Shown: positions 2,616-57,157, numbered from the whole stretch's first letter. The stretch: DNA of 61,515 nt, filler included, from 6 parts of 6 records of this genome joined end to end with filler, not necessarily neighbours in it, one strand, 5' to 3'. Notes: generated by a model not told the origin, from the letters alone. Made by a program: numbers and translations.

Positions 2616-2693
2616 AAGACTGTCAACACAGGAAACTGAAAAATTTCAACAAAAAAACATATCTTCCTGCCTGAAAATTAACAAACAAGCTGC

Positions 2694-3938
2694 ATGAAGG
2701 CACTGTTGAAAGCACTTGGCCCTGGCCTATTGTTCGCCAGCATGGCCATTGGCACCTCACATTTGGTATTGTCCACCAAAGCGGGAGCCCAATATGGATG
2801 GGTAATGGTGATTCCCATTATTTTGGCCAATTTGCTCAAGTATCCTTTTTTTGAATTTGGGATACGCTACACCACGGTAACGGAAAAAAGCTTGATAGAG
2901 GGGTATACCAATCTAGGAAAGACCTACTTGTATATATACGCCTTTGTCACGTTGATTTCCACCTTTACCATTTTGGCGGCATTGTATGTTGTGACCGCTG
3001 GATTGTTCATGAACTTGTTCGAGGTAACTTCCTTGGGAGCGGGGGCGATTGCATTTGGACTTTTTGTATTTATAAGTCTTTTGTTAATCATCGGGAAATA
3101 TAGATTTCTGGAAAACTCCTTAAAAGCTGTAATAACCATTCTCTTTATCGCTCTTTTGATAACAACTGTTATGGTGTTACAAAAAGGTCCGGTACCTAAT
3201 GCTGCATCTTACCAAAGACCTGAGATTTTCAACGAGGTCGGAATTTTATTTTTGATCGGGCTAGTTGGATGGATGCCAACAGCCGTAGAAGCATCTGGAT
3301 GGGTAAGTTTATGGGGCATGGAAAATTTAAAAACCATGAAGAACAAGCCATCTCTTAAACTTGCACTACAAGAATTCAATGTTGGATATATTTTGACTGC
3401 GGTTCTGGCCCTGTTTTTTATGATCATTGGCTGGATGACCCTGTATGGTACCGGAACGGAACTCAGCAATAACTCCGTCATCTTTGCAGACCAACTGGTA
3501 AGTCTCTTTACAACCCATATCGGAAGGTGGGCCTATTTTTTTATTGCCGTTGCGGCATTCGCCACCATGTTCAGCACCTGTATGACGGCCCATGATGCCA
3601 TTTCCAGGGTCAGTCTCGATGTTCTTCAAAAATTATATCCTAAAAAAAACATCTACAATGGCAAACATACCTTCGCTTTGATGGTGGTTGCCATGGCTTG
3701 GATCAACTGGATCGTGATAAGTCTATTCAGTGCCAACATGGGAAACCTCGTGGCCTTGGCCACATTTGTATCCTTTGTTTTTGCACCATTACTGGGATGG
3801 ATGAATCTTAAAACAGTAACAGGCAAGGATATGCCGGAAGAGCACAAACCAAAAATAGGAATCAGGATATTAACGTACTGCGGAATGCTTTTTTTATCAC
3901 TGTTCGCTTTGTACTATTGCTGGATACTGTTGATTTAA
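2694..3938 (+). CDS. NRAMP-like divalent metal transporter family membrane protein
   Basis: N-terminal LGPGLLFASMAIGTSHLV...AGAQYGW and KYPFFEFG motifs; about 11 hydrophobic segments. Confidence 0.8.
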   Translation: MKALLKALGPGLLFASMAIGTSHLVLSTKAGAQYGWVMVIPIILANLLKYPFFEFGIRYTTVTEKSLIEGYTNLGKTYLYIYAFVTLISTFTILAALYVVTAGLFMNLFEVTSLGAGAIAFGLFVFISLLLIIGKYRFLENSLKAVITILFIALLITTVMVLQKGPVPNAASYQRPEIFNEVGILFLIGLVGWMPTAVEASGWVSLWGMENLKTMKNKPSLKLALQEFNVGYILTAVLALFFMIIGWMTLYGTGTELSNNSVIFADQLVSLFTTHIGRWAYFFIAVAAFATMFSTCMTAHDAISRVSLDVLQKLYPKKNIYNGKHTFALMVVAMAWINWIVISLFSANMGNLVALATFVSFVFAPLLGWMNLKTVTGKDMPEEHKPKIGIRILTYCGMLFLSLFALYYCWILLI

Positions 3939-5885
3939 TTAATCGAACAGGACATTATCGTTGAGAACCACCACCAAGGAACGTTGGTTCTTTTTGTGCA
4001 ATGTTTCCAAACAGAACACTCCATTGGTACAATTATTCAAGATTTTATCTTCTCCATAGCCAATTGAATATAAAATAGTTGTGGCCGGCACACCACTTTC
4101 CACTAAATATTTTTTAATGGCATCGGAACGTGCTTGTGTAAGCTTAAAATTGGTGCTGCTTCCTCCTCGACTGTCAGTATAGGTTTCAATTCGTAGTTGC
4201 GCATCTGGGAATGCTTTGACAAAGTCAACAACTTTGGTAAGCTCCTGTTTGATACCGTCATTCAGTTGTGTGGACCCGGTATTAAAATAAAAGTCATCCA
4301 ATTTTACTACTTTTTGACCTTCCCTTTCTTCCACTAGATCATCATAAAGTGAAACGGGAATATCGAAAGTGGTATTCTGTAAAGCATCTAATTCATCCTG
4401 GACAAATTTCTTGATATATCTTGAATATCGCTCTTTGGATGCATCCAATACCAACTCGCTCTCGTATGGAATTTCCAAACGGTATTCCCCATTTTCATCC
4501 GAAGTAGTTTTTGCCAACACAGCCCCGTTCATGTCCCAAAGACCAATTTCTACATTGGGAACTGTTTTGGATGAACCGCTTTGGTTTACCACAGCACCTT
4601 TAAATGTGATAGTCTTGAGACCTGGTTTTTCATCCACCTTAAACCCGTATATATCATCCTTTCCTTTACCTCCCTTACGGTTGGATGCAAAATAGCCCAA
4701 CAAGCCATCCCCTTCGTTACGGATTATCATTCCAAAATCATCGAATTCGGTGTTGATGGGTTCTCCCAAATTGATGGGAATCCCAAAACCATCATCCTCT
4801 ATGTTGGATTTATAGATATCCATACCACCAAGACCATAAAACACATCGGACGCGAAATAAAGACTGTTCTCAAATATGTACGGGGCAACCTCGTTTCCGG
4901 GTGAATTGATTCGCGGTCCCAAATTGATTGGAGCCGACATTACTTGCCCATTATTGGTGTACACATAATAGATATCCGTACCGCCATAACTATCTTCAAA
5001 ATCAGCCGAAAAATAAAGCTTACCGCTAGCATCATCATAAAAAGGATAATAGAAAGAAGTACTCAAATCTTTTAACAGCAACTGATATGACCCCCCAATG
5101 GCCTGTTTGGCAATTGCCAAGGCATTTTTTCCGTTGGAATCAAAGGCAAGTTCCCCATTCTCGGTGTTGGACAGCACATAAAAAACACTGTTCAATTTTG
5201 ATGAATAGAATGGTGTTGCTTCGTGGTAATCCGTATCCTTCAACGATTTGAACAACTGTACGGAGGTAACTAGGCCAGTAGGCTGAATATTTGATTCGTA
5301 AATATGAAAGTACCCCTCATTGCCTGGCTCATATCGCAATTTTTTATTGACTTGGCGGCCACTGGAAAACAAAAGCTTGTTGTCATAAAAGCTTGGAGCA
5401 AAATCGGTTTGGGGACTATTTCCGTTCAAATTGAAGATATCATACTCCAACTGATTTTCTTGTGAACCATTTTCCAAAAGTTGCTTATTGAACTCCATGT
5501 TCTCCATCAATTCTTTAGGAAAACTTGACGAAACTTTAGCTAAAAATTCAGTCGTTCCATCTGTATTGGAATTCTGGGATAGGCTTCTAAGCATCTTGTT
5601 GTAATGGTGGGCATCCATCAAAGAATCCTTTCCAAAGATTTCCATGTAGGTCTTGGATGCTTTATCAAAATTATCGGTTTCAAAATAGGCATCAGCCAGA
5701 TTAAGGAACTGCTGCTTGGTAAGAACTCCTTTTGAAAGTTGCTTCTCGTAAGCATCGACCGCCTTTTGATATTCGTACTGAAAAAAGAAAACATCTCCTG
5801 GGGAACTTCTTTTTTGAGCAAAACTGAGCACTGTGCCCAGTAGGCATGCCCAAAGTGTCAATTGTATGTTTTTTACATGGCTCAT
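3939..5885 (-). CDS. OmpA-domain protein with TPR, PD40 and carboxypeptidase-regulatory-like domains (PorE-like)
   Basis: GGTDIY/GLGGMDIY PD40 repeats, C-terminal TDSRG...GYGE OmpA-like domain, directly downstream of a PorP/SprF gene. Confidence 0.85.
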   Translation of the reverse strand: MSHVKNIQLTLWACLLGTVLSFAQKRSSPGDVFFFQYEYQKAVDAYEKQLSKGVLTKQQFLNLADAYFETDNFDKASKTYMEIFGKDSLMDAHHYNKMLRSLSQNSNTDGTTEFLAKVSSSFPKELMENMEFNKQLLENGSQENQLEYDIFNLNGNSPQTDFAPSFYDNKLLFSSGRQVNKKLRYEPGNEGYFHIYESNIQPTGLVTSVQLFKSLKDTDYHEATPFYSSKLNSVFYVLSNTENGELAFDSNGKNALAIAKQAIGGSYQLLLKDLSTSFYYPFYDDASGKLYFSADFEDSYGGTDIYYVYTNNGQVMSAPINLGPRINSPGNEVAPYIFENSLYFASDVFYGLGGMDIYKSNIEDDGFGIPINLGEPINTEFDDFGMIIRNEGDGLLGYFASNRKGGKGKDDIYGFKVDEKPGLKTITFKGAVVNQSGSSKTVPNVEIGLWDMNGAVLAKTTSDENGEYRLEIPYESELVLDASKERYSRYIKKFVQDELDALQNTTFDIPVSLYDDLVEEREGQKVVKLDDFYFNTGSTQLNDGIKQELTKVVDFVKAFPDAQLRIETYTDSRGGSSTNFKLTQARSDAIKKYLVESGVPATTILYSIGYGEDKILNNCTNGVFCLETLHKKNQRSLVVVLNDNVLFD

Positions 5886-5886
5886 G

Positions 5887-6879
5887 TTAGAAAAATCTAG
5901 GGGAATCTATTTGCTTTCCTTTATTGTCGTTCGATTTTTTATCCTTGGACCTATTGCTTCCGGAGCCAAAACCGCCCCGGCCTATATAAAATTTGATGAT
6001 TGCTTCATGGGAACCACCGCTGTATTCACCCAGACCATTGGTAGCATAATCGTACGCGTACCCTATGAACATCGCATTTGAAATCTGAAGTCCCGCCAAC
6101 CCGCTTACGGCATTGTCCAATCGATACGACCCTCCAATAGTGAGAGCATCCAAAAACTGAAAATTCGCCGATAAGTTTACCGTCACTGGGGAACCTTCTA
6201 AGTAATTTACCAAAAATGCAGGCTTAAATTTGGTCTGTTCTCCCAATTTGAACACATATCCTCCAATGGCATTGAATTGCATATTATCTTCTACAATGGT
6301 GGCCACTTCGTTGTTGTACAGTGCATTGGTCAAAAAGTTGGGCACTGAGACCCCAAGGTACCAATCTTCTTCATGGTACATAAAAAGACCTGCCCCCACA
6401 GTGGGATAAAAACTATTGTATTTACCTCCTAATATTGACGGGTCCGATGGGTTTTCAAAATTACCTTTGGAATAATCTATATCTAGCATTGACCCACCTG
6501 CATTTAGTCCAAAAGAGAGCTTGGTTTCTTGAGATAATTGAATTTGATAGGAATAGGCAATATCAAAATATGTTTGTGTGGATGGCCCTAGAACATCGTT
6601 CACCACATTGACTCCCAATCCCATTTTCTCATTTTTAAAAGGGATATTGGCACCTGCACGAATGGTTGTAGGGGCTCCATCGATATCCATCCATTGCGAA
6701 CGGTACAACCCGATTATTTCAGGGCTTTCCACAGTACCTACGTACGCAGGGTTAAAACTACCTATATTGTACATGTACTGGGTGTACTGCGGCTCCTTTT
6801 GCCCGTATATGGAGCCAAGGGCCATGCAAAGTGTGAGCAACGATATTCGGTATTTCAACAAACTTTTTATATCTGGCAT
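5887..6879 (-). CDS. Type IX secretion system PorP/SprF family membrane protein
   Basis: QYTQYMYN...NPAY, YRSQW...GAPTT, GYAYDY...GSHE motifs. Confidence 0.93.
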   Translation of the reverse strand: MPDIKSLLKYRISLLTLCMALGSIYGQKEPQYTQYMYNIGSFNPAYVGTVESPEIIGLYRSQWMDIDGAPTTIRAGANIPFKNEKMGLGVNVVNDVLGPSTQTYFDIAYSYQIQLSQETKLSFGLNAGGSMLDIDYSKGNFENPSDPSILGGKYNSFYPTVGAGLFMYHEEDWYLGVSVPNFLTNALYNNEVATIVEDNMQFNAIGGYVFKLGEQTKFKPAFLVNYLEGSPVTVNLSANFQFLDALTIGGSYRLDNAVSGLAGLQISNAMFIGYAYDYATNGLGEYSGGSHEAIIKFYIGRGGFGSGSNRSKDKKSNDNKGKQIDSPRFF

Positions 6880-10508: not shown

Positions 10509-11243
10509 TTATTGAAAATACGATAATAGGTCTGCCTTTTTGGATGCCGAAACGGAGAGTTCCTTACCATTTGACAGTACCACACTGCCACCTTTGCCCT
10601 TTTTATATTTCATCACTTCGGCAACATTCACCAAATAGGATTTATGGATTCTAGCAAATGAATAGGATTGCAGGGCTTCTTCAAAATATTTGAGGGTTTT
10701 GCTTACTACAATTTTCTTTTTCTCAAGATATATTTCTGTATAGTTATCATCTGCTTTGCAAAAATAGATATCGGCAACATCAAGCACTTGGAAACCATCT
10801 TGCTGGGGCAGTGTTATTTTTCCCTCGGCCTTTACAGAACGGGCCTGCAGTACCTGTCCCTCCAATGCATTTTCCTTTTCTTTGATGCCCCGCACATACT
10901 CGACAGCCTTTATCAACTCATCAATATTGATGGGCTTCATCAAATAATAGGCCGCATGATGATTGAGTGCATCCATGGCGTACTGGTTATAGGCCGTCAC
11001 AAAAATGGTCTCAAAAGTACGTTCCGGGATTTGGTCCAATAGGTCGAAGGCATTGCCAAAGGGCATTTCCACATCCAAAAAGACCAAATCTGGATTGTGC
11101 TTTTTAATTTGCTGCAATCCTTCCTCTATCGTGGCGCCTTCCCCTAGCAAGGTGATGTTCTCACAATATTTGGACAAATAGTTTCGAAGAATTTCGCGGC
11201 TGTTCGCCTCATCTTCTACAATGACCGCCTTTAGTTCCATCAT
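10509..11243 (-). CDS. LytTR family response regulator
   Basis: Receiver domain (VEDE, FLDVEMP, TAY, KP) plus LytTR domain (FARIHKSYLVN). Confidence 0.95.
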   Translation of the reverse strand: MMELKAVIVEDEANSREILRNYLSKYCENITLLGEGATIEEGLQQIKKHNPDLVFLDVEMPFGNAFDLLDQIPERTFETIFVTAYNQYAMDALNHHAAYYLMKPINIDELIKAVEYVRGIKEKENALEGQVLQARSVKAEGKITLPQQDGFQVLDVADIYFCKADDNYTEIYLEKKKIVVSKTLKYFEEALQSYSFARIHKSYLVNVAEVMKYKKGKGGSVVLSNGKELSVSASKKADLLSYFQ

Positions 11244-13453
11244 TGTTTTTTAAGTTTTAGGGATACCCTTGTACCCGTTTGGTCACTGTTCAAATCAGCA
11301 ATGGACACATCAACCTTGTTTTTGTACATATCGTTCAAAATCTGGATGCGTTTTTTGATGTTGCCCATGCCTTTTGATTTCTGTTTCTTTTGATTGGCCG
11401 TCTTCAATTCAGCGGACATTTTTCTTCCAATACCGTCGTCCTCGATACAGATTTCGAGCATATCTTCCGTGATTTGTCGCACTTTGATTTTGAGGGAACC
11501 CTTTTCTTCCTTGTAACGCAACCCATGCCAGATGGCATTTTCAATATAGGGTTGAAGCAACATGGGCGGGATTTGAAAGGCATCCACATCTATTTTTTTA
11601 TCCACGTCTATTTCGTAATCAAACTTGTCGGAAAACCTTGAATGTTCCAATTTTATGTAAAGTTCCAACAGCTCCAGTTCCTTGGCCAATGGAATAAAAT
11701 CTTCTTCAGAATTTTCGAGTACACTACGCATCAATACGGAGAACTCGCTTAAAAATCGGTTGGCGCTCCGCTCATCGCTCTTGGCTATATAATTGTTCAC
11801 CGAATTGAGCGCATTAAAAATAAAATGCGGGTTCATTTGGGTTCTAAGCGACTTTAACGCTAAAAGGTTGTTGGCCAATTTTTGCTGTCTATTGCTCCTG
11901 TAATACAAGAATGCGGTGAGTGCCATCAGAGCAATTCCGAATATCAGGGAATAGATGATCCATTTTTGACGCTTGCTGGTCTCTTCGTACAATTGTTGCT
12001 CCGTTACGGCAAGGCTATATTTGCTTTGACTGAGCTCCCTTTCCTGTTCCAAACTGGAAATTCGGTTTTGCGTGTTGGCAATCTCACGATTAAACCGTGC
12101 CGCCCTCGAAATCTCCTGTTCCTTGCGCACGTAAAGGCTATCCACCACGGCCACATAATCTTGGTAGGACTCCAAGGCCTTGCCATAATCACCTTTATAG
12201 CCGTAGACTTCAGAAAGTTTTCGCGTAGCGTCCTTTTGTACCACAAGGTCATCATCCTTGTCCGCTTCCACGATACTTTTTTCCAGATATGGAATTGCTT
12301 CCTCCAATTTGTCCTGGGCGATATAGGCATTGGCAATTTTATAATTGATGCGCTGAGAGGTTATGGTATCCCGGGTATTGATTCCCTGTGCCCTTGAGGC
12401 CACACTGGACCTTGGCATCTGCTTTAATTCATCCAGATTTCTTTTTCTCAACTGGATCTCATCATCATATCGGCTTTTCTGATTGTAGAAATCGGCTACT
12501 TTTTCACTTTCCTGTATCAAGCGTTCGGGCGCTACTTCTTTTGAAAGGCTTAATGAATTTTGATAAAATCCTTCGGCCTCTATCACTCTGTCCTCACTGG
12601 CAAAAACATCCGCAATTTTAGAGTTGAGGTCGATTTCCTTGGGAGAGATTTGGTTTTTTTCTGCGATAACTAGACCCTGTTGATAATACCCTTGGGCATC
12701 TTTCAATTTACCCAATTCCTTATTGGCATCGCCTAAAGCTTCAAAAAGTTCGATTCGCTGGTAGGGCACCATGTTCCTTACCGTTACCAGAGGTTCTAGA
12801 ATGGAGATGGCGCTTTCATAGTTTTTATTTAGAACATAAGCTCGTCCCAACAGTATTTTGGTCTTGTTCGATTCCTGTGCGGCCAAGGCATCCTTAAAAT
12901 TGGTGATGGCCAAATCGTACTGTTCGTGGAACATATAGATTTCGCCCAAAGTACGTAACGAAGCGGAAAATTCATTTTTATTCCCTGAGCTGCCCAAAGA
13001 TTCCATTGAGCGTGCGATAAAATCGATGCTCTTTTCCAAATCGGTTTTCTTGTAAGCGTTGGCAGAATCCAAAAACCGTTGATGGTCTGCAAGGGAACTC
13101 CTTGAACTTATGGACTCCCGTTTTTGCTTTTTCGAAACCCCACCGTAATAACCTTCCACCAACACATCCACATCCTCACCCGATTTGATACGGTAACGCA
13201 CTGTTTCCAGTTCCGGGCTTTCAACCATCAATATATCTCCTATGGAAGCCCTGATAATAAACTCCCCCAAGGCATTTGTAGTGGTAAAGGCTCCTTTATC
13301 GGTGGATACGCGAACTCCAGAAATTGGGGCATAGTTTTCCTTGCCCTTTACAGAGCCTTTGATTTGCATTTGACCCTGTGCATTTCCCACTTGCGCCAGA
13401 GAACCCAACGAGGTGAAAAGAATCAATAGTAATATGTAAATATTGCGAGTCAT
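11240..13453 (-). CDS. LytS/YehU-type sensor histidine kinase with periplasmic TPR region
   Basis: QMNPHFIFNALNS H-box, LLQPYIENAIWHG, DDGIG; TPR-like helices, one TM helix; ATGA overlap with the regulator. Confidence 0.93.
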   Translation of the reverse strand: MTRNIYILLLILFTSLGSLAQVGNAQGQMQIKGSVKGKENYAPISGVRVSTDKGAFTTTNALGEFIIRASIGDILMVESPELETVRYRIKSGEDVDVLVEGYYGGVSKKQKRESISSRSSLADHQRFLDSANAYKKTDLEKSIDFIARSMESLGSSGNKNEFSASLRTLGEIYMFHEQYDLAITNFKDALAAQESNKTKILLGRAYVLNKNYESAISILEPLVTVRNMVPYQRIELFEALGDANKELGKLKDAQGYYQQGLVIAEKNQISPKEIDLNSKIADVFASEDRVIEAEGFYQNSLSLSKEVAPERLIQESEKVADFYNQKSRYDDEIQLRKRNLDELKQMPRSSVASRAQGINTRDTITSQRINYKIANAYIAQDKLEEAIPYLEKSIVEADKDDDLVVQKDATRKLSEVYGYKGDYGKALESYQDYVAVVDSLYVRKEQEISRAARFNREIANTQNRISSLEQERELSQSKYSLAVTEQQLYEETSKRQKWIIYSLIFGIALMALTAFLYYRSNRQQKLANNLLALKSLRTQMNPHFIFNALNSVNNYIAKSDERSANRFLSEFSVLMRSVLENSEEDFIPLAKELELLELYIKLEHSRFSDKFDYEIDVDKKIDVDAFQIPPMLLQPYIENAIWHGLRYKEEKGSLKIKVRQITEDMLEICIEDDGIGRKMSAELKTANQKKQKSKGMGNIKKRIQILNDMYKNKVDVSIADLNSDQTGTRVSLKLKKQ

Positions 13454-15874: not shown

Positions 15875-15975
15875 CTGACGGTTGGGGCTAGTGATTATCG
15901 AATACTGTAAAACACTTAAATAACGATAAGCTTGTCACATTATTATAATATTTTGCTGCGCATCGCAACTATTGG

Positions 15976-15983
15976 TATTTTTG
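15976..15983 (+). promoter_or_regulatory. Bacteroidota promoter -7 element for the NifU gene
   Basis: TATTTTTG just upstream of the ATG at 15999. Confidence 0.5.
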
Positions 15984-15998
15984 CAACAAATATTCAAG

Positions 15999-16895
15999 AT
16001 GAAAGAGTTCAATATCACGGTTGTTACCACCAACAACCCCAAGATAATAAAATTGGAGGCCAATCATTTTTTGGTAAAGGGCAATTACGAATTTAAAAAT
16101 ATTGACGAGGCCAAAAATTCCCCGTTGGCCCAGCAACTTTTTTACCTTCCGTTTATCAAGACCGTCTACATTGCCAGTAACTTTGTGGCATTGGAACGTT
16201 TTGACATTGTGGAGTGGGATGATGTAAAGGATGATGTGGCCCAGCAGTTGGTCGAGTACCTAAACGCTGGTGAGCCGGTCGTAAACGAGGAGGCGGTTAC
16301 CAAAAAAGAGCCGATTACAGTATATGCTGAGGTAACACCCAACCCGGCCGTAATGAAATTTGTTTCCAACAAAAGGATTGTTCCCTCTACCTATGAGTTT
16401 AAAAACATTGACGAGGCCAAGGATTCCCCATTGGCGAAGGAACTATTCCATTTGCCTTTTGTAAAAGAGGTTTTTATGGATGAAAACTACGTTTCCGTTA
16501 CCAAATACGAAGTGGCCGATTGGGAAGAAATCAATATGCAATTGCGCGAATTTATCCGCGATTACCTTGCCGATGGCAAGGAAGTGGTAACTGCAGAAGC
16601 TATCCAAAAGGGCAAGGAGACTATTGAGCAGAAAAAATCTGGAACAGATTACGATGACACATCATTACAGATCATAGATATTTTGGAAGAATATGTAAAG
16701 CCAGCCGTTGCCGGTGATGGCGGAAATATCCTTTTTCAATCCTATGAAGAGCAAAGCGGTACTGTTAGCGTTATTCTCCAAGGAGCATGTAGTGGTTGTC
16801 CATCTTCCACATTCACCTTAAAGAACGGTATCGAAACGATGCTTAAGAACATGATGGGCGATAAAATCAAGGAAGTGGTGGCCCTTAACGGATAA
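15999..16895 (+). CDS. NifU/Nfu-type Fe-S cluster carrier with two N-terminal Nfu_N domains
   Basis: TPNP, duplicated SPLA..LF.LPF motif, DGG...GACSGCPSS; ATG at 15999 preferred over the TTG. Confidence 0.92.
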   Translation: MKEFNITVVTTNNPKIIKLEANHFLVKGNYEFKNIDEAKNSPLAQQLFYLPFIKTVYIASNFVALERFDIVEWDDVKDDVAQQLVEYLNAGEPVVNEEAVTKKEPITVYAEVTPNPAVMKFVSNKRIVPSTYEFKNIDEAKDSPLAKELFHLPFVKEVFMDENYVSVTKYEVADWEEINMQLREFIRDYLADGKEVVTAEAIQKGKETIEQKKSGTDYDDTSLQIIDILEEYVKPAVAGDGGNILFQSYEEQSGTVSVILQGACSGCPSSTFTLKNGIETMLKNMMGDKIKEVVALNG

Positions 16896-17603: not shown

Positions 17604-17703
17604 NNNNNNNNNNNNNNNNNNNNNNNNNNNNNNNNNNNNNNNNNNNNTTAATTAATTAANNNNNNNNNNNNNNNNNNNNNNNNNNNNNNNNNNNNNNNNN
17701 NNN
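17604..17703. other. Artificial contig linker
   Basis: N44-TTAATTAATTAA-N44; stops in all six frames. Confidence 0.99.
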
Positions 17704-19706: not shown

Positions 19707-20522
19707 CTAGTTATCTTTTATTTCTGCTAACTCAATATTTAGTTTTTGGTCTCCATAATTCACATAGTTCAACTTTACAAACCCAAATTTTTCATGAAAC
19801 CAATAGGTTACTTCAGAACGGCCAAGGTCAAAGTTTGATACAGCTTTAACTTTCCAACAGTTTTCCAGTTCTCCGTAGTTTGTTTGTATTGTTTCTATGG
19901 ATAGTACCTCGAAGGTACTTCTTACATTCATATATGACCAATCTCCCCAACCTTCCTGCAATTTTATATCATTGTCCGTCCATTTTTTTCCTACACTCAA
20001 AGGAAATTTAATTTGTGGAAATGGAGCTACCTCTGTGAAGTTATATTGGTTAGACCTGAATGGATGCATCCATATTTCTTCCACATTCTCTCTTATTCCT
20101 GTACTTACAGTTCGGCTCCATTTATTGTAAATAGCGCTCTTGTTGAGTTGATATAAATTAATACTATCAATAGACTCCTTATCAAATTCATATTTTAGTA
20201 GAATCTCGTCTTGTTTTTCGGGATTATGTTCCCATCTCTTCCCTGTTGCCATTAATAAAATACGCTCCTTGGATATTAATTCATTGGATGCGCTATAGAA
20301 TGCTGCATCAAAAGCGTAAATTCTACAGGGTTTAAAGACTTCTCTTCTTTTTTCTATTCTTAAAACAGAATCTAATTGAGGAGTCATTTCTCCGCTTATG
20401 CTTGCTCTATATTCATACTTTGGCATGGGTTCTGGTGCGCACCTAAAGTCAATACTTTTTTTGTTTGTGCAACTCCCAAAGAGCAGGACAATAACAAAGA
20501 ATAGGTTTAGTTTATATTTCAT
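19707..20522 (-). CDS. Hypothetical lipoprotein (candidate cassette gene)
   Basis: MKYKLNLFFVIVLLFGSC lipobox at ATG 20522; WMHPFR.NQY.FTEVAPFP; C-terminal YWF...GFVK. Confidence 0.8.
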   Translation of the reverse strand: MKYKLNLFFVIVLLFGSCTNKKSIDFRCAPEPMPKYEYRASISGEMTPQLDSVLRIEKRREVFKPCRIYAFDAAFYSASNELISKERILLMATGKRWEHNPEKQDEILLKYEFDKESIDSINLYQLNKSAIYNKWSRTVSTGIRENVEEIWMHPFRSNQYNFTEVAPFPQIKFPLSVGKKWTDNDIKLQEGWGDWSYMNVRSTFEVLSIETIQTNYGELENCWKVKAVSNFDLGRSEVTYWFHEKFGFVKLNYVNYGDQKLNIELAEIKDN

Positions 20523-20676
20523 AGCAGGTAATAGTGGTTTATGAATCGCAGCGTAAGACACTTGGGCAAGCAGTAAGTAAACCGATGCCTTCAATTGGTT
20601 CGATAGCTGGTTGGGGAAATAGGCGGTTTTCTTATAAAACATGACAATTAACTTGTTTATGAGACATGTGTTAGCC
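20523..20676 (-). repeat. Degenerate attC-like junction
   Basis: GGCTAAC overlaps the upstream stop; TCTCATAAAC...GTTTTATAAGA imperfect inverted repeat; ATTACCTGC just before the next ATG. Confidence 0.4.
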
Positions 20677-21384
20677 ACAGTACTTTTTTCTTAGTTCGGC
20701 AGCTTCTTTGTCTGTTTTATAGCCATGTAGTAAAAGTCCCTCAGCGCAACTTATCTTTTTTTCCTCAATTTGTTTTAAAACAAAACTTTTGTATTCATTG
20801 GTTTTTTTAAAGCGATTTGGAACCAGTTTTATTAATTTTTTAGCATCCATATTTGATAGCTTTTCGCTTTTTACCAACTTAAAGATCGTGTTTTCTAGTT
20901 CCTTATAATGTAGTTCATTTTCCAATTTAAAATTGAACTTATAGGTATCGGAATTGGCAACCAATAGAATGTAATTTTTTATCCCGAGACTTCTTCTTTC
21001 TATTGGATTTCTATATGTCAAATTAATTCTTTCTCCATAATAAGCATCTATCCCGAACTGTATTTCGGCAAGTTCAGAGTATTTAAAATTCTTTGAATAA
21101 TCAATGATGAGTCCGTCTTTATTAAATTCTATATGGCCATCTTTTTTTGATGCAATACGTTCAAAATCGTAAAATTGAAACAAGTATGCGCTTATTATTG
21201 GGATTAATGCCACCAAGAAAAAAGGAAATACTAAATCCTGAATATTGTCAAAAAGGGGCATTTCCTTATTTAGAAATATTAGAACGAATACAAAGCCAAA
21301 AATTAAAATACCAGACCAAAATAATTGTTTGGTAACGGAAAGTCTACCTTTAAAAATCTGGTATTTATATGCTGTAAATTTCAA
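20671..21384 (-). CDS. Hypothetical membrane protein with two N-terminal TM helices (candidate cassette gene)
   Basis: 237-aa ORF with two hydrophobic segments then a soluble domain; TTG start uncertain. Confidence 0.7.
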   Translation of the reverse strand: MKFTAYKYQIFKGRLSVTKQLFWSGILIFGFVFVLIFLNKEMPLFDNIQDLVFPFFLVALIPIISAYLFQFYDFERIASKKDGHIEFNKDGLIIDYSKNFKYSELAEIQFGIDAYYGERINLTYRNPIERRSLGIKNYILLVANSDTYKFNFKLENELHYKELENTIFKLVKSEKLSNMDAKKLIKLVPNRFKKTNEYKSFVLKQIEEKKISCAEGLLLHGYKTDKEAAELRKKYCG

Positions 21385-21506
21385 TTTAGAAATATTAGTG
21401 CTAAGTTTTGAACTAAAACAAATGGGCAGGTAGGTCTTTCGTCTTAACCTGAGCCTTTGTTTTTGCCTACCACTCCTTTAACATTGATTGTTTTTTTTAG
21501 TTTTTT

Positions 21507-22790
21507 TTATTCTATTTCAGACCTATCCGAAAGTGCATCAAATTTTGCTTTCATCGTAGGATTGCCGTGGGTCAATTTTTTTATGGTTAGATCATCTGCT
21601 TTATTATTCGCCAGGCGTAGGTTGTTCTCCGATGATAACAGTGCATCTTTTGTTTTTTGAAGATGACTAATTGTTTTGTCTATTTCATCAATGGCAGTTT
21701 TGAATTTGCGACTTGCCAAATCGTAGTTATAGGCAAAACCTTTTCTAAAGGCATCAATCTTTTCTTCAAAATTGGTAATATCCACATTTTGATTTCTCAT
21801 CAAATTTAGTTCTGCTTTGTACTTCAAAGAATTCATTGCCGCATTACGTAGCAGTGTTATTATTGGTATGAAGAATTGAGGCCGTACTACATACATTTTT
21901 TCGAATCTATGTGAAACATCAACTATTCCAGTATTATAGAATTCATTTTCTGATTCCAAGAGCGATACTAAAACGGCATATTCACAATTCTTATCTTTAC
22001 GATCCTTGTCAAGTTTAGCAAAGAAATCCTCGTTTCTTTTTTTTGTCGCAGTTTCATCATTTTCATTTTTCATTTCGAACATAATGGAAATAATTTCATT
22101 ACCGGCATCATCAGTTTCTTTATAAATAAAATCGCCCTTATTGCCAGTTTTGGAATCATTGTCTTTTTCAAAGTAAGCGTTTTGAAAAGCGGTTGCACGT
22201 AATTTGTTGAATTCCGTTTCACAGTGTTGTTCCAAAGTTTCGCCAACCATTTTCGTAGAAAGTTTCTGTTTGAAGTCTTTTAAACGAGCAATTTCATCGT
22301 CTTTCATTTTGATTGTTTCATCCTTTGCGATTAGTCTGTTACTAAACTGTTCTGTAATAGACTTTTCAAGTAACTGTGTCTCGGTTTCTTTAATCTTCAA
22401 ATTATTAGCAAGATTATCACGCTCTTTTTCAATCATTTTAACTGCCTCTGAGACCGACAGTTTTTTATCCATTTCTGCATTTTGGATTCTGGATTTCATT
22501 TCAGCGATTTCCGCTTCTTTTTTTGCCAACTTATCAGCTAGATCAGCATCACTGTTAGCCTTTAGTAGTGTTAGCTCATTATCCTTTTTGGCAAGCTGTT
22601 CTTGTAATGCGTTTCTAATGTTAGCCTCCGCAAGCTTAACGGCACTTTCCTTTTCCCTCTCCGCTAGACCTAGTCTATTATTTAGCTCTTCTTCAAATTG
22701 ATGGTCTCTAACTTGTTTAAGTATATCAGCAAAACCAGCCTCATCAACTTTAAAGGCTTTTTTACAATTTGGACAAATAATTTCGTTCAT
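21507..22790 (-). CDS. DUF2130 family coiled-coil protein
   Basis: IICPNC...F, long coiled coil, [20 protein letters not shown]...[27 protein letters not shown]. Confidence 0.88.
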
Positions 22791-22808
22791 ATTATTTTTC
22801 TTTAAATA

Positions 22809-22939
22809 GGACAACGGTTAGTGTATGAAAAGTAGGCGATTTCGACGCACCCAACTTTTGGTTATGCACAAAGTTAGAAACGAGCCAAAAGTTTTGATTT
22901 TATTGCTGTTTCGCCCATTTTTTATATACATTGTTATGG
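22809..22939 (-). repeat. attC-like imperfect inverted repeat (~131 bp)
   Basis: On - strand CCATAAC...GTTGTCC ends; outer stem 22822-22839 with 22911-22928; inner stem 22853-22863 with 22883-22893. Confidence 0.65.
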
Positions 22940-22946
22940 AAAGTGC

Positions 22947-24815
22947 TTACTTAATAATTACTACTTCATCTTCACTAAACCAGTCTAATCCTAACAAATT
23001 AGTCTTTAGTTGCTCTACATTATCAGTATAGGCAACTATAGCCAAACTGTCTTTAGCTCTACTACACGCCACATAAAAAAGACGAGAGGTGCGATCTATG
23101 CCTGTTTCTTTACCTTCCGCAATATTTTGATTATCATTTTTAGATAGTTCCTTTAAACCGAAAAGTTTGTCATAACTGAACATAAATCCTTTCGACTCTT
23201 CATCATCAATAATTACCACAGCTCTGTCAAATTCCAAACCTTTCACTCCTTGATGAGTACCGAAATTTGAACTGTCAGATACATAATCGTTGTATTTAAT
23301 GATTTCATGGAATTTTGACTGTAAGGCTTGATCCCAAGCTAGAAGATTTTCGTCATCATCTTTTTGTTCTTCATCATCACCAGAACTTTTTGTCCTTTCA
23401 ATAGATAATTTTAAGTCACTTGGAATAATAAATAATCTTGACTCACTAATTTCTAGTAGCAAATCCATTAAAGTTGGGTACTTATCTCCTTCCCACAGAT
23501 TTAATAAACTGTCAACATTTTTTTTCGCTTGATTTAATATTCCTTTTTTGTCCGTTTCTTCGATAATATATTTTTCATCAAATAGGGGGCAGTCTCGTTT
23601 TACGATATTTGAAATTTCGAATTTATTATCGGTTTTAAATGCATTATATAATGGTAATATTGTTTTTATAAAAAAATTAACACTAGTCAAAGTTCCTTCA
23701 AGTAATCCTTGTTTTAATTTATCAACTTGATATAAGGGATTGAAAAAAGTGCTGAAACCCATTCTAATTGCTGCCATGTGATGCTCTAGAGTTAGGGTTT
23801 TTACAGAATTGTAATTATTCCATTTTTCATCAGCCGTAAGTTCAGACATTTTTTCCTTTATCAGATTTTCAACCGTTAATTTATCAGATTTTCTTGGGAC
23901 GATAAATAACCTTACAATTCCACCTACGTTTTCTACACGAGCTAACTGTTGTTGTCCATCAATATCTTTTCTAATTTTATTATTTAGTTCAATGATTCTA
24001 GATTTTGATCGATGATTCATTTTTTTTACTGGTTTTAACCAATCTTCAGGTAATTCTTCTCCAAGTTTTTCTTTACCATCACTATAAATACGTTGCATTG
24101 TATCACCAAACAAGCCCAATGAAAATCTATTTTTATTTTCGGATTGCAATACAAACAAAGATTCAATTAAATCTTTTTTAGTGTCTTGACTTTCATCAAT
24201 TAAAACAATGGGATATTTATTAATCAAAATCTGTTTAAACAAATCCATTGAATTAAGAAAAAAACAAGTAATAGAAATAACTTCAGAATGATTTAATGAT
24301 GCTTTGGTATAATTATCCCCATTTGGATTGTAAATAAACTTGTTTATTAACGGTAGAGCAATTAATCTTTTATTTTTTGATTCTAATTTTTTTCTATTCG
24401 AGATTGCAGTTTTATTATTTGGATCTCTAGCTTTTTCGAGTTTGTCCTCAAGATCCTTTATAGATTCTTGAATATCTGTTTCAACCCATTTTTTTATATC
24501 TGAAGTATAATTTTTAATTAGTTCCCAACAAAAACTATGTATTGTACTTACGTTAAAAATTGAATCGTAAGACAATCTGTGATTAATTTCATTAGCAGCA
24601 GCATTTGTGTAAGTTATTATGGCAATTTTTCGATTACGAAGTCTGTAATCTTGTCCATATGCTTCCTTGAATGCAGTTAAAACATTAACTAATGTTCGTG
24701 TTTTCCCAGAACCCGCGCCCGCAAAAAGGAAGAAGCTTTTTGGGGATTTTGGATTCAAACAGTTGAAAATATCATCATCAACTTGTTGGTCAATGTCATT
24801 ATTTTCAGCTATCAT
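22947..24815 (-). CDS. UvrD-like SF1 helicase (Gabija GajB-like)
   Basis: AGAGSGKT, ITYTNAA, STIHSF, IDESQD, GDTMQRIY, NHRS, THQGVKGLEF, LFYVACSRA; ATGA overlap with the OLD nuclease gene. Confidence 0.88.
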   Translation of the reverse strand: MIAENNDIDQQVDDDIFNCLNPKSPKSFFLFAGAGSGKTRTLVNVLTAFKEAYGQDYRLRNRKIAIITYTNAAANEINHRLSYDSIFNVSTIHSFCWELIKNYTSDIKKWVETDIQESIKDLEDKLEKARDPNNKTAISNRKKLESKNKRLIALPLINKFIYNPNGDNYTKASLNHSEVISITCFFLNSMDLFKQILINKYPIVLIDESQDTKKDLIESLFVLQSENKNRFSLGLFGDTMQRIYSDGKEKLGEELPEDWLKPVKKMNHRSKSRIIELNNKIRKDIDGQQQLARVENVGGIVRLFIVPRKSDKLTVENLIKEKMSELTADEKWNNYNSVKTLTLEHHMAAIRMGFSTFFNPLYQVDKLKQGLLEGTLTSVNFFIKTILPLYNAFKTDNKFEISNIVKRDCPLFDEKYIIEETDKKGILNQAKKNVDSLLNLWEGDKYPTLMDLLLEISESRLFIIPSDLKLSIERTKSSGDDEEQKDDDENLLAWDQALQSKFHEIIKYNDYVSDSSNFGTHQGVKGLEFDRAVVIIDDEESKGFMFSYDKLFGLKELSKNDNQNIAEGKETGIDRTSRLFYVACSRAKDSLAIVAYTDNVEQLKTNLLGLDWFSEDEVVIIK

Positions 24816-27001
24816 GATAATGGTGTTTTAGATTCAGCAATATTTTTTGTTGGCTTCAAAACTTCTTCTAACCAATCCAAACCTTCTTTAATGTAATTGG
24901 GCACCTTTAAATCTTCTGGTGCTTCAAAATATAATACATCGAGCGCAAATTCAGCCTTTTTTACACCATCACTATTTATTGCATCATAAGCTTTTTGAGC
25001 AGCAATATTTTTATCCACTTCATTAGCAGCTTCAACCATTTTTTTCAACAAACCAGATGTTGCTGTAATTGCTTTAAATTTATCTATGTTCTCCAAAACT
25101 AGTGCATCTTCAAATGTATAGGGGTATACTTTTGTTCCAGATAAATCTATTTCTATTTGGTAGGCAACCCTGATGGGATATTCTGTTAATAATTTACCCT
25201 CAAACTTCAGTTTTATCAGTTCATCAACTTTTGACAAATTAGGATTCCATGTCTTTAAAGAGTCATTATTGGTTATCTGGTCAACCCCTAATTTTGGTTT
25301 ACATTTTCTATATTTATCTTTAGGTGGATTTTTTGAAGCATCAGTATATTTTTCTTGAGAGTCTAAATCTGTTATAATTAAAGTTGCTAAACCTAGTTTC
25401 TCTATAAGTGGTTTTAGTCTATGCGCATGACTTCCTCCTATTTCTAAGATCGTTATATAGCAACTATCAAGAACTGCGTGATGATTTTTAATAAAGTGCG
25501 GTATTAACATTCTTTCCGCTGGTCCTTCAACTAATATAGTTGCGTCTGCAAAGAATAAATCATTATGAGTTGTATTTAAATATCGTATTACAAATTTTTC
25601 AGTTTCATTTTCTACTGGTATAGTAGAATCGAAAACTGATTTTATACTTAACACTTCAGATGTAGGTGTCGTTGATATTATATTTCTTTTAAAATATCTT
25701 AAACTTTCAAATTTTTGATGCGCTATGTAACTAGAGTGAGTACTAATTACTAATTGCGTAGTAAAATCAATTTTCAAACCCAAATTATCATGAGCTCTTA
25801 AAATATCATAAGCTTTTTTTATAAATACTTGTTGAACTTGCGCATGTAAATGAGCTTCTGGTTCTTCTATTAGTACTAAATGAATTGGTTCAATAATTTT
25901 ATCATCAGATAAGTTTTTACCTTTTTTCATCCATTCATCTCGAAAGCGAATTAATTTAAAAACCATTGAAATTAAGTTTTGGTAACCTAATCCATTGTAT
26001 TTCTCAGGTAATGAAAGACCTTCTTCTAAATTGTATCTAACTGCTGAATCATGATCTAAGCCATCTGTAGCTTTAATAAGTGATGCTAATGTTATTTGCG
26101 GATTTCCAAATCCGGGATAATTTAAGTCACTTAGCTCCTTAAGTGGAGCTTCAAAACTTGAAGTCAAATTTTTGTCAAATGTACTCTGTGCTTCATTTAG
26201 CTTTTCAAGTGCTTCTAAATCTTTTTCATTAGGCTCAATCGAAGGGTTTAAATGTTTGTCATAATAAGAGCGAAGTTGCGAAGACAATGATTTATTACTA
26301 TTAGATTCAGGATTATCTGAATTAGCATCACTAAATCCACGTTGAGCGTTAATTGTATGAATTTTTATTAAACCATTTAAAGGGTTGCCTTCAAGTTCGA
26401 TATTAAGTTCAGTAAGTTCTTGGTCTTCCTTATATTTGTCAGGATCTAGTAAAAATGATTTTACTTCAAATAAAGTTTTCAATTTCTTATCACAAAATTG
26501 CCAGAAACTCGCAGGCCAAAGATCTACCGCTTTACCTGATTTTGAATTCAATTCTAATACTTTGGTTCTTGCAATTAGGTATTCCTCTATAACTACTTCT
26601 ATATCTTTAGGCTGTAAAATGAGCCTTAAACCAAGTAAACCTCCATACCAGTCAAGTGTTGGAATTATATGACTTATATATCTTAATTCGGAAATATCGA
26701 CATTAAACCACAAATCTAAGGAAGGTAAATAAGGTTCAAGTATTTTTATACTCCTATCACCATCCTCTAAATTTTCTTTTGTAATCCATAATTCTGCAAT
26801 CTCATTTAATTCCTTCCAATTTGTAATTGTGAAATCTTGAGTTTTAAAATCTTTCGTTTCTAGAAAAGCAATTAATGCATCCATTGCGGAAGTTTTACCA
26901 CTATTATTTGCACCAACAAATATTGTTTCTTTATCAGAAAATTCAATTCTACAACTTTTGAGTTTCCTGAAATTTTTTATTTTGACGAATTCAATTTTCA
27001 T
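24812..27001 (-). CDS. OLD-family ATP-dependent endonuclease, ABC ATPase plus TOPRIM (Gabija GajA-like)
   Basis: IKNFRK, GANNSGKT, GLGYQNL, IEEPEAHLH, STHS, DLFFAD..ILVEG..E, ITDLD, TFE, KAEFA. Confidence 0.9.
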   Translation of the reverse strand: MKIEFVKIKNFRKLKSCRIEFSDKETIFVGANNSGKTSAMDALIAFLETKDFKTQDFTITNWKELNEIAELWITKENLEDGDRSIKILEPYLPSLDLWFNVDISELRYISHIIPTLDWYGGLLGLRLILQPKDIEVVIEEYLIARTKVLELNSKSGKAVDLWPASFWQFCDKKLKTLFEVKSFLLDPDKYKEDQELTELNIELEGNPLNGLIKIHTINAQRGFSDANSDNPESNSNKSLSSQLRSYYDKHLNPSIEPNEKDLEALEKLNEAQSTFDKNLTSSFEAPLKELSDLNYPGFGNPQITLASLIKATDGLDHDSAVRYNLEEGLSLPEKYNGLGYQNLISMVFKLIRFRDEWMKKGKNLSDDKIIEPIHLVLIEEPEAHLHAQVQQVFIKKAYDILRAHDNLGLKIDFTTQLVISTHSSYIAHQKFESLRYFKRNIISTTPTSEVLSIKSVFDSTIPVENETEKFVIRYLNTTHNDLFFADATILVEGPAERMLIPHFIKNHHAVLDSCYITILEIGGSHAHRLKPLIEKLGLATLIITDLDSQEKYTDASKNPPKDKYRKCKPKLGVDQITNNDSLKTWNPNLSKVDELIKLKFEGKLLTEYPIRVAYQIEIDLSGTKVYPYTFEDALVLENIDKFKAITATSGLLKKMVEAANEVDKNIAAQKAYDAINSDGVKKAEFALDVLYFEAPEDLKVPNYIKEGLDWLEEVLKPTKNIAESKTPLS

Positions 27002-27030
27002 ACTTCATAATTATAGCGTAGTTAGGTAAC

Positions 27031-27069
27031 GCATTTTCCATAACAATTGGATATCATCAATGATGATAT
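27031..27069 (-). promoter_or_regulatory. Candidate recombination site: GTT core plus adjacent perfect palindrome
   Basis: GCATTTTCCATAAC at 27031-27044; ATATCATCA-A-TGATGATAT at 27051-27069. Confidence 0.45.
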
Positions 27070-27314
27070 ACTACTTATAGCACACCATAAAACAACTAGG
27101 CCGCAACTAGATATCTTTAATTGTCCTATAATTCTTATTATTCCAATAAAATTTTCGTGGGTGGGCAGCGGGGGGAGTACTACAACCAAGAGTTTGTTTC
27201 TAACCTTCTAAGTTAGCAAATATTGGTTTTGGTATTTGCTTAATCGATGAAGTACGGTTATATCCGACAAACGGGTGGAACAAGTTGAAAGTTATAATGT
27301 TGAAAGTTTTAAAG

Positions 27315-27414
27315 NNNNNNNNNNNNNNNNNNNNNNNNNNNNNNNNNNNNNNNNNNNNTTAATTAATTAANNNNNNNNNNNNNNNNNNNNNNNNNNNNNN
27401 NNNNNNNNNNNNNN
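27315..27414. other. Artificial contig linker
   Basis: N44-TTAATTAATTAA-N44. Confidence 0.99.
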
Positions 27415-34783: not shown

Positions 34784-34883
34784 NNNNNNNNNNNNNNNNN
34801 NNNNNNNNNNNNNNNNNNNNNNNNNNNTTAATTAATTAANNNNNNNNNNNNNNNNNNNNNNNNNNNNNNNNNNNNNNNNNNNN
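34784..34883. other. Artificial contig linker
   Basis: N44-TTAATTAATTAA-N44. Confidence 0.99.
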
Positions 34884-39096: not shown

Positions 39097-39196
39097 NNNN
39101 NNNNNNNNNNNNNNNNNNNNNNNNNNNNNNNNNNNNNNNNTTAATTAATTAANNNNNNNNNNNNNNNNNNNNNNNNNNNNNNNNNNNNNNNNNNNN
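39097..39196. other. Artificial contig linker
   Basis: N44-TTAATTAATTAA-N44. Confidence 0.99.
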
Positions 39197-50621: not shown

Positions 50622-51386
50622 ATGGATTTAAAAAACAAACATTTTGTTATAATTGCAACAACGTTACTTTTGCTGGGTTGCAAGGAATCCGTTCCCAAGC
50701 TAAGAAACATTGAGGGACAAAGGATTCAGATCAATTATTCTTCCAGCCCAAAAGATTCAATAGAAAACGTAATCGCCCCATATCGGAACAGGATCAACCA
50801 GGTTTTGGACAGTGTTTTGGCCTATGCCCCAACAGCTATATCCAAAACAGATGGTACACTGAATTCTCCCGCAGGCAATTTAATGGCAGACATTGTAATG
50901 CAGGAAGTAAATCCTGTTTTTACCGCCAGAACTGGGCAACAAATAGATTTTGTTCTTCTTAACTTTGGGAGTATCCGATCCGTAATTTCACAAGGAAACA
51001 TTACCGAACGCACGGCCTATGAAGTTATGCCCTTTGAAAATTCGGTGGTTATAGCCGAATTGGACGGCAAGGCCATTAGGGCCATGGTGACATTCCTAAT
51101 AAAGTCCAGTGTTGCCCACCCAATTTCGGGGATACAAATAATAGTGGATAAAAATAAAAGTTTGCAAGCCGTAAACATTCAAGGAAAACCCTTTGATGAA
51201 AACAAGACCTATTATGTTGCCACTTCGGATTATTTGATCACTGGTGGGGATAAAATGGATTTTTTAAAAGATTATATTTCTTTGACGGATTCAGATTATC
51301 TAATAAGAAATACCCTGATAGATTATTTTAAAAAAATAGACACCCTTACGGCAGCTATGGATGACCGGTTTATGCAAATCAAATAA
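50622..51386 (+). CDS. 5'-nucleotidase C-terminal domain lipoprotein
   Basis: LLGC lipobox, GNLMAD, N.G.IR, VMPFEN, ATSDYL..GGD. Confidence 0.9.
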   Translation: MDLKNKHFVIIATTLLLLGCKESVPKLRNIEGQRIQINYSSSPKDSIENVIAPYRNRINQVLDSVLAYAPTAISKTDGTLNSPAGNLMADIVMQEVNPVFTARTGQQIDFVLLNFGSIRSVISQGNITERTAYEVMPFENSVVIAELDGKAIRAMVTFLIKSSVAHPISGIQIIVDKNKSLQAVNIQGKPFDENKTYYVATSDYLITGGDKMDFLKDYISLTDSDYLIRNTLIDYFKKIDTLTAAMDDRFMQIK

Positions 51387-57057: not shown

Positions 57058-57157
57058 NNNNNNNNNNNNNNNNNNNNNNNNNNNNNNNNNNNNNNNNNNN
57101 NTTAATTAATTAANNNNNNNNNNNNNNNNNNNNNNNNNNNNNNNNNNNNNNNNNNNN
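57058..57157. other. Artificial contig linker
   Basis: N44-TTAATTAATTAA-N44. Confidence 0.99.

Follow-up and report, generated by a model that had tools for sequence, protein, structure and literature searches.

A Gabija gene pair as the probable cargo of an integron-type cassette with a G|TT crossover

The stretch of DNA analysed in this work (61,515 nt including filler, hereafter the window) carries on its minus strand two adjacent genes of the anti-phage system Gabija, gajA (24812..27001) and gajB (22947..24815), and the pair is very probably the cargo of a 4229-bp integron-type cassette that was inserted at G|TT by a site-specific tyrosine recombinase. The whole linear cassette, delimited from its parts and from a rule relating the two ends of such cassettes (described below), occupies 22815..27043 and reads, on the minus strand like all window features described here, TT..., gajA, gajB and an attC-like hairpin site ending in G. 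An initial annotation had described the unit as an integron-like cassette with a G|TT crossover and raised the possibility of a divergent cassette system; the anatomy of the unit, the end rule and the swapping of cassettes at G|TT from genome to genome all uphold this description, and the word divergent fits a system whose recombinase lacks the insert specific to the integron integrase IntI.

The product of gajA (729 residues) is an OLD-family ATPase with a TOPRIM nuclease domain (Pfam AAA_15, E = 1.9e-68; OLD-like_TOPRIM, E = 1.3e-19), in which the Walker A motif GANNSGKT is legible, and it matches PADLOC GajA (PDLC00093, E = 3.2e-268) over residues 1-722. The product of gajB (622 residues; stop codon 22947-22949) is a UvrD-like superfamily 1 helicase (Pfam UvrD-helicase, E = 1.9e-22, plus UvrD_C) that matches PADLOC GajB (PDLC00111, E = 1.2e-246) at full length, and the start of gajB overlaps the stop of gajA by 4 nt. 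Two full-length PADLOC matches in adjacent genes bear out the earlier identification of a Gabija-like nuclease and helicase pair. Once inserted, the cassette would supply the cell with a Gabija anti-phage system.

In gene orientation the unit opens with ATTGTTATGGAAAATGC (27047-27031, preceded by CCA), 29 nt before the gajA ATG (27001), and directly 3' of the gajB stop it continues with GCACTTTCCATAACAAT (22946-22930). An inverted-repeat search recovered these two 17-nt ends, which the initial annotation had singled out, as complementary at 16/17 positions (94%) and 4084 nt apart, and as the sole 17-nt inverted pair with at most one mismatch within 6 kb in the 9611-nt contig that holds the unit. 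Such a pair arose in 41.5% of 200 first-order Markov simulations of the contig (mean 0.855 pairs), so that the repeat alone is not significant and the comparative evidence carries the weight; for the exact placement, with one arm at most 60 nt before gajA and the other at most 20 nt after gajB, the expected number is about 2.6e-5, a post-hoc figure. The outer arm contains the cassette 5' end, TTATGGAAAATGC (27031..27043), which is the cassette-borne half of R', and the right arm contains R'', GCACTTTCCATAAC (22933..22946), the inverse core of the cassette's attC. The attC-like site itself is 123 nt long (22813..22935), running from AAC (22935-22933) to GTT (22815-22813), and its arms GTATAT..AAAA.TGGGCGA and TCGCCTA.TTTT.ATACAC constitute an imperfect hairpin, with the crossover expected between G22815 and T22814.

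The start of an integron cassette, TT..., derives from its own attC in the circular form, and its first bases complement the inverse core at its end. For the end rule, the 7 nt following G|TT were compared with the 7 nt preceding the next AAC as reverse complements, with a threshold of at least 6 of 7. The ends of the Gabija unit, GTTATGGAAAATGC and GCACTTTCCATAAC, fit the rule, the variable bases GTTATGGAAA and TTTCCATAAC being complementary at 7/7 positions and the longer stretch at 13/14.

Copies of the 123-nt site were sought in 201 genomes of the nearest family, each standing for one genus, with at most 4 candidates scored in each, which makes the copy numbers lower bounds. BLAST matches with 70-90% identity were present in 68/201 genomes and were frequently clustered on one strand, in gaps between co-oriented open reading frames (ORFs); this attC type alone is found in a third of the sampled genera of one family. 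Alignment of 32-33 copies gave a conserved core, AACAATGTATATAAAAAATAGGCGAAA ... TCGAAATCGCCTACTTTTCATATACTAACCGTT, with flanks that vary outward from exactly ...AAC and GTT... and resemble the inverse-core and core boxes of integrons (e.g. GCCTAAC and GTTAGCA). The defining attC architecture, RYYYAAC and GTTRRRY boxes flanking an imperfect palindrome, was observed both in 32 aligned copies and in the arms of 72 sites, which span 45-190 nt through a loop of variable length. Pairing of the arms (GTATAT/ATATAC, AAAA/TTTT, TAGGCGA/TCGCCTA) leaves small asymmetric loops, and across 38 sites 13/17 pairs of the stem have changes on both sides (e.g. GGCTAT/ATAGCC, GTGTAT/ATACAC). Stem cells were paired in 95.3% of cases versus 29-45% with slid partners, and 0/500 shuffles reached the observed values, in an alignment that had been fitted to the model and so favours the structure. 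The window site scored 149.6 bits (E = 1.6e-31) with covariance model R1 and 125.6 bits with model R2; R2 was built from 38 sites and misses other attC classes (e.g. the site after gajB in locus L053), so that site counts are minima. A search with R2 also located attC sites outside the family, in Lunatimonas and in a Bacteroidia metagenome-assembled genome (MAG). A home-made scanner for AAC...GTT hairpins, which returned 96 true-strand versus 59 reverse-strand and 56 shuffled matches in 102 kb, was dropped. At 22869-22876 the attC core of the window holds TAACTTTG (AAACTTTG in most copies), which points into the next cassette and resembles the Bacteroidetes -7 promoter box TAnnTTTG; an active box would mean that every attC supplies its downstream neighbour with a promoter, a difference from classical integrons.

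Many of these sites lie in arrays. With R1, 13 same-strand sites were detected within 19 kb of genome G141 and 4-6 in each of genomes G093, G107, G091, G028 and G165. In G141, at least 6 of the 7 variable nucleotides were complementary in 9/12 adjacent pairs (e.g. GTTGTACCC then GGGTACAAC), and three further cassettes, between the recombinase gene and the first model match, also fit the end rule when examined by eye. Over 16 loci with 72 sites the rule held for 21/56 adjacent pairs versus 74/5056 non-adjacent ordered pairs (1.5%), a tally in which two sites were counted twice through overlapping loci. Such complementarity between adjacent sites is a signature of integron cassettes. Two attC variants without a variable inverse core, having instead a constant 5' flank (GATGCCCATGCTGGGCACACAC or TTGTGCAACAGGCAC), were noted in L033 (G093; 4373, 8610, 13399 and 15845), L035 (G107; 12310 and 16373) and L043, L050 and L052 (G028).

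Exchange of cassettes at G|TT was observed at the site where the unit is inserted. Upstream of the cassette the window holds the 3' part of a repeated intergenic element, here called E (27044..27314, cut by the contig end), which ends in the hairpin ATATCATCA-TT-GATGATAT followed by CCAATTG, the final G of which (27044) is the crossover G. Metagenome contig L085 shares the upstream flank of the window through this terminal hairpin to ...GCAAATG|TTA and then diverges, placing the breakpoint where the initial annotation had expected it. The L085 cassette starts with TTAGCTAGCG, and about 4.5 kb further on its attC opens with CGCTAGCTAAC, an 11/11 complement. As L085 passes at G|TT into another cassette that obeys the end rule, different cassettes make use of the 3' end of E for insertion. 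The L085 cassette (1184-5800; 4.6 kb) encodes a ParA-like ATPase and a SIR2_2 protein, likely a defence pair, and contains an IS21 element (IstA/IstB) on the opposite strand.

Complete copies of E are about 400 nt long, with AACTTTCAAC direct repeats and a near-invariant core (...TTGGTTGTAGTACTCCCCCCGCTGCCCA...). A 24-nt string from E was found in four metagenome contigs (L085-L088), with E present twice in each of L086, L087 and L088; among the 201 genomes E is in one genus only, with 3 copies in G042 (G042:C29), and is otherwise confined to marine metagenome contigs. The copies serving for comparison with the window are at 5500-5886 and 7764-7909 in L087 and at 6530-6837, 15948-16333 and 17443-17830 in L101 (G042:C29). 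By synteny E sits after a GFO/IDH/MocA oxidoreductase gene, and the conserved gene downstream of the island corresponds to 19707 to about 20540 of the window. E had no match in Rfam and none to attC model R1 with filters off.

The same Gabija unit also stands beside other neighbours elsewhere, as the initial annotation had proposed to look for. A scan of one genome per species yielded 32 loci with GajA relatives, including Flavobacterium (84% identity), Flavihumibacter (81%), Sphingobacterium (82%), Chryseobacterium and Chitinophaga. Four of these loci (L058, L056, L053 and L064; 72-84% amino acid identity) keep the cassette ends and have different flanks and attC cores, the upstream flank differing in all four. 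L058 starts with G|TTATGGGAAATGC, homologous to the start of the window cassette; L056 has the ends ATGGGAAATGCT and AGCACTTCCCAT; and GCACTTCCCATAAC is kept after gajB in L053, L056 and L064, with L053 and L064 ending in it before attC cores unrelated to that of the window. More distant Gabija systems (61-64% identity) occur in L075 (Lunatimonas) and L076 (the Bacteroidia MAG) within cassettes of 9.6 and 12.6 kb, the former carrying GajA and GajB together with a type IIG restriction-modification enzyme and a methyltransferase; the two cassettes have the ends GTTGTAAGCAAGCC / GGCCAGCTTACAAC and lie behind differing upstream attC sites. A cassette start TT... complementary to its own inverse core, as in integrons, was accordingly found in the window, in the arrays and in L085, L075 and L076.

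The window consists of six contigs joined by N44-TTAATTAATTAA-N44 spacers (17604-17703, 27315-27414, 34784-34883, 39097-39196 and 57058-57157), with GC contents of 0.42, 0.33, 0.58, 0.57, 0.395 and 0.61, a spread that suggests a mixed bin. Since contigs are separated by spacers, genes on either side of a spacer are no neighbours: the cytochrome bd genes from 27428 belong to another contig than the Gabija pair. The Gabija contig (17704-27314; 9611 nt, GC 0.33), which is marine flavobacterial, leaves 267 nt upstream of the unit before its end. A reading of these 267 nt as the 3' end of an integrase gene was rejected on two grounds: their 35-codon frame is unlike the C-terminus of the G141 recombinase beyond TSS..IK, and relatives show the oxidoreductase gene upstream of E. 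The nearest genome, G001, matches the contig solely over 135 nt between gajB and the next gene, and this match occurs twice in G001, 3 kb apart on one strand. A tRNA scan of the contig detected 0 tRNAs, and an Rfam scan of it gave nothing relevant, with two sub-threshold matches away from the unit.

Downstream of the cassette, directly 3' of attC, lies a DUF2130 gene (21507..22790; Pfam E = 1.1e-88) that starts after G|TTGTCCTATTT, followed by the rest of a variable island (20545..21506), which comprises a 237-residue ORF (20671-21384) plus spacers; the conserved chromosomal flank opens at about 20540, the window being similar to L087 (94%) and G042 (92%) from position 20536. The island is arranged as E [GajA GajB] attC [DUF2130] [237 residues] in the window, as E [154 residues] attC-like [370 residues] E [248 residues plus P2-Old-like] attC-like [DUF2130] in L087 and as [185 residues] E [354 residues] E [300 residues] in G042. 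At the position taken by Gabija in the window, L087 (8021-10551) encodes a 248-residue protein of no known family and a P2-Old-like OLD nuclease (PADLOC Old PDLC02358, E = 1e-233). An OLD-family system is thus found just upstream of DUF2130 in both, and the L087 DUF2130 gene (10723-11961), which is likewise 3' of an attC-like site, has no nucleotide similarity to that of the window. No PADLOC model matched DUF2130, which could be a linked accessory gene or an independent gene of the island that evolves fast.

A tyrosine recombinase gene adjoins the homologous arrays in G141, G093, G107 and G028, which was the association that the initial annotation had suggested seeking. In 5/5 array-bearing genomes the best match to the IntI model TIGR02249 was a protein of 379-405 residues, aligned in two pieces (model positions 7-180 and 240-313); the cut-off of 265 was reached in 0/5 of these genomes, the best score being 122.5 plus 87.8 bits in two pieces. 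The G141 gene lies just upstream of its array of 16 same-strand sites and on the same strand, and the cassette behind the first junction, ...CACATACG|TTGTAACAC, conforms to the end rule; the integron arrangement of an array with an attI junction beside an integrase gene was observed in relatives only. When the array-adjacent protein P0001 was compared with IntI4 (2a3v), residues 114-276 corresponded to 13-176 and residues 294-374 to 235-317, leaving 17 residues where IntI4 has 58, so that about 41 residues of the IntI-specific insert are missing. The additional domain near patch III that distinguishes IntI is therefore lacking in the relatives examined. The C-terminal tail of the G141 protein (...THVATSSFSSIKNPL) resembles that of IntI4, and about 105 extra residues at its N-terminus have no Pfam match. 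Recombinase homologues (E <= 1e-40) were found in 137/201 genomes, some covering the catalytic part only. By inspection of the match table, which was not a systematic count, 13 genomes have a same-strand homologue no more than 15 kb upstream, and 2 have a divergent one. The divergent homologues (G042:C29 77537-78367 with sites at 82741 and 83603, and G002:C13 65570-66370 with a site at 51117) match only residues ~100-376 and have the orientation of classical integrons. About 10 kb upstream of the 1935-1949 kb array of G028, a recombinase fragment with two in-frame stops (G028:C1:1959210-1959383; L052) is a decayed platform, and an intact copy with its own array is present in the same genome at 1367 kb.

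The likely enzyme would be a 375-405-residue Xer/IntI-like recombinase that is encoded elsewhere in the genome and acts in trans, presumably on a folded, single-stranded attC. In the excised circle the attC would abut, with its last base G, the opening bases of the cassette, TTATGGAAAATGC, which would pair with the inverse core GCACTTTCCATAAC (R'') at the far end of attC, and this pairing would leave the ends of the integrated unit reverse complementary. The circle junction CACTAACCG|TTATGGAAAATGC put forward by the initial annotation is the one that the cassette anatomy predicts. The cassette would have entered E at its 3' end, the crossover falling at G|TT, and the window cassette may still be mobile. 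Contigs assembled from four sequencing runs by Logan, in which rare forms are dropped, were aligned to window 20400-27314. Depth in the attC bin was 20-70 times that of its neighbours in 3/4 runs, and loose contig ends clustered at 22811/22813 and 22936/22937; in run X1, pieces of the cassette (~96-97% alike) stopped matching at 27044 and 22934, with 24 unmatched letters beyond each. None of the runs that contain the stretch is an RNA run.

Several results weigh against assigning the unit to an integron-type cassette system. Adjacent pairs that fall short of 6 of 7 number 35/56; in 13 of these the downstream site is of the two odd types that have a constant 5' flank and no AAC, which may explain the failure, and others span several kb, a distance over which weak sites may have gone undetected. 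The end rule also fails for two cassettes that follow E, the first one behind copy 1 in L087 and the one behind copy 3 in G042. A reading of DUF2130 as the next cassette was not supported, the candidate site after its stop scoring 7.6 bits (E = 4.5) and having no complementarity to the start. With R1 the window contig has a single detectable attC, and the cassette is solitary with no visible array. The recombinase found beside arrays is without the insert that IntI is thought to need for recombining attC, and recombinase genes were absent from the window, from L085-L088 and from the 6 kb around each of the 32 loci with GajA relatives. Neither the circle junction nor an empty site was found among the Logan contigs of the four runs, which cannot show rare forms. 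Finally, the fold energy of the window attC by itself was no better than that of shuffled sequences (z = -0.11 and -0.40), and since the single site is indistinct from shuffles, the hairpin structure rests on covariation.

Four other explanations were weighed. In a double-stranded mechanism of the Xer type, comparable to that of the Xer-dependent modules discussed below, the enzyme would act on duplex sites and the hairpin would reflect paired binding sites. The G141 recombinase fits this in that its highest family score is 232 bits, for NF040815 (XerA / integron integrase; cut-off 220), the XerC and XerD models score close to TIGR02249 (195 and 190 versus 199) and the closest solved structures are XerC-like and XerA proteins; moreover, the common attC type shows sequence conservation in its arms, a property expected of sites bound by protein. 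The arms, however, lie about 70 nt apart around a variable loop and co-vary to keep pairing, which duplex sites do not need, and the complementarity captured by the end rule reaches 10-14 nt, so that we consider an Xer duplex mechanism unlikely. Alternatively, the unit may belong to a canonical integron with standard attC sites, as a solitary cassette or remnant of a cluster of attC sites with no integron integrase (CALIN), the canonical IntI being encoded elsewhere or lost. Standard traits of such elements include the RYYYAAC/GTTRRRY boxes, the hairpin arms, arrays in one orientation and the end rule, and a review counts Bacteroidota among the phyla with integrons. Against this stand the failure of all five array-bearing genomes to reach the TIGR02249 cut-off, the shortfall of about 41 residues at the IntI4 insert and the N-terminal extension of about 105 residues without a Pfam match, and the IntegronFinder 2.0 paper gives for Bacteroidetes only In0 elements and one complete integron (Salinibacter); we rate a canonical integron as quite improbable.

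A chance inverted repeat, within a defence island rich in AT whose variation stems from homologous recombination of conserved intergenic repeats, would be compatible with the simulated frequency of such pairs given above and with the use of E and attC as homology anchors. Homologous exchange does not explain the complementarity between the start of a cassette and its own end, seen in 21/56 pairs versus 1.5% of controls and likewise in L085, L075 and L076; in different genera, moreover, the Gabija genes keep these ends, and this explanation is disfavoured to the point of being highly improbable. A transposon or composite flanked by miniature inverted-repeat transposable elements (MITEs), for which the inverted ends of the 4.1-kb unit would serve a transposase as terminal inverted repeats and the inverted arms of the 123-nt element are MITE-like, is scarcely credible, as the target-site duplications and transposase of transposons are absent from the unit ends (CCA|ATTG... 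versus ...CAAT|GTATAT) and from the unit and its flanks, a result in favour of the initial annotation's reading, and the element is one-stranded within arrays and always between co-oriented ORFs, whereas MITEs insert either way.

The cassette behaves as an integron cassette and lies outside the integron family as usually defined, because the IntI-specific feature of the integrase is missing in the relatives. The wider proposal, that Flavobacteriaceae and other orders of Bacteroidota hold a separate integron-like lineage with an insert-less recombinase that has its own N-terminal domain, exchange of hairpin cassettes at G|TT, remote E landing pads and movement of 4-13-kb defence systems between genera, is one to which we give even odds. 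Its defence cargo would include Gabija, P2-Old-like systems, SIR2 pairs, and a type IIG restriction-modification system plus Gabija. If the proposal is true, recognition of a folded attC evolved, or persists, without a domain held essential. The insert-less recombinase beside arrays offers a natural experiment on the need for the insert in attC recombination. The cassettes identify a means of transfer of entire defence systems among Bacteroidota of marine and soil habitats, and the results suggest that integron finders requiring an IntI profile miss a large class of platforms. As the ends G|TT... and ...AAC allow exact delimitation of cassettes, candidate new defence genes may be read out of these genomes.

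Integrons are the textbook gene-capture device of Proteobacteria, and Bacteroidota have been regarded as almost free of them. What differs here from the published integron cassettes with defence cargo is the phylum, the recombinase, an attC type conserved across genera, multi-gene cassettes of 4-13 kb and remote landing pads. In the literature surveyed, no attC arrays or integron-like elements were described in Flavobacteriaceae (supplements and subscription journals lay outside the scope of the survey), and the text of Cury 2016 contains neither 'Bacteroidetes' nor 'Flavobacteri'. Defence systems as integron cargo are reported for Vibrio and for mobile integrons (10.1101/2024.07.02.601686, 10.1101/2024.07.02.601719), and Bacteroidota appear in a 2024 preprint as a clade 'previously found without any integrons'.

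Compared with known Gabija systems, which consist of adjacent GajA (OLD-type ATPase plus TOPRIM) and GajB (UvrD-like helicase) as here, no unusual features were found in the proteins, and the new aspect is the vehicle. The cassettes resemble those of sedentary chromosomal integrons (e.g. the Vibrio superintegron and its Vibrio cholerae repeats, VCR) in their G|TT bounds, ...AAC/GTT... cores and imperfect hairpin with variable loop, as well as in their co-oriented arrays, attC sites similar within a lineage, attI-like first junction beside the recombinase gene (G141) and defence cargo. Unlike integrons, they are accompanied by a recombinase that has no IntI insert, bears an N-terminal extension and is, in most cases seen, encoded in the orientation of the cassettes; copies of one attC type share 80-90% identity across many genera, cassettes measure 4-13 kb with 2-4 genes, and the insertion site E is remote from the recombinase gene (58 kb in G042; no such gene in the window). 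Non-classical genomic insertion sites of integron cassettes provide a further comparison: as in a CALIN or solitary attC, the cassette and its attC are located away from an integrase, at a chromosomal site ending in G|TT, but the landing site here is itself a conserved repeat of about 400 nt that serves different cassettes in different genomes. Xer-dependent mobile modules, namely integrative mobile elements exploiting Xer (IMEX) and plasmid dif (pdif) modules, likewise combine an Xer-like recombinase with sites of inverted symmetry; theirs are dif-like sites of 28 nt, whereas the sites described here are 45-190 nt long, of the hairpin type and of attC architecture.

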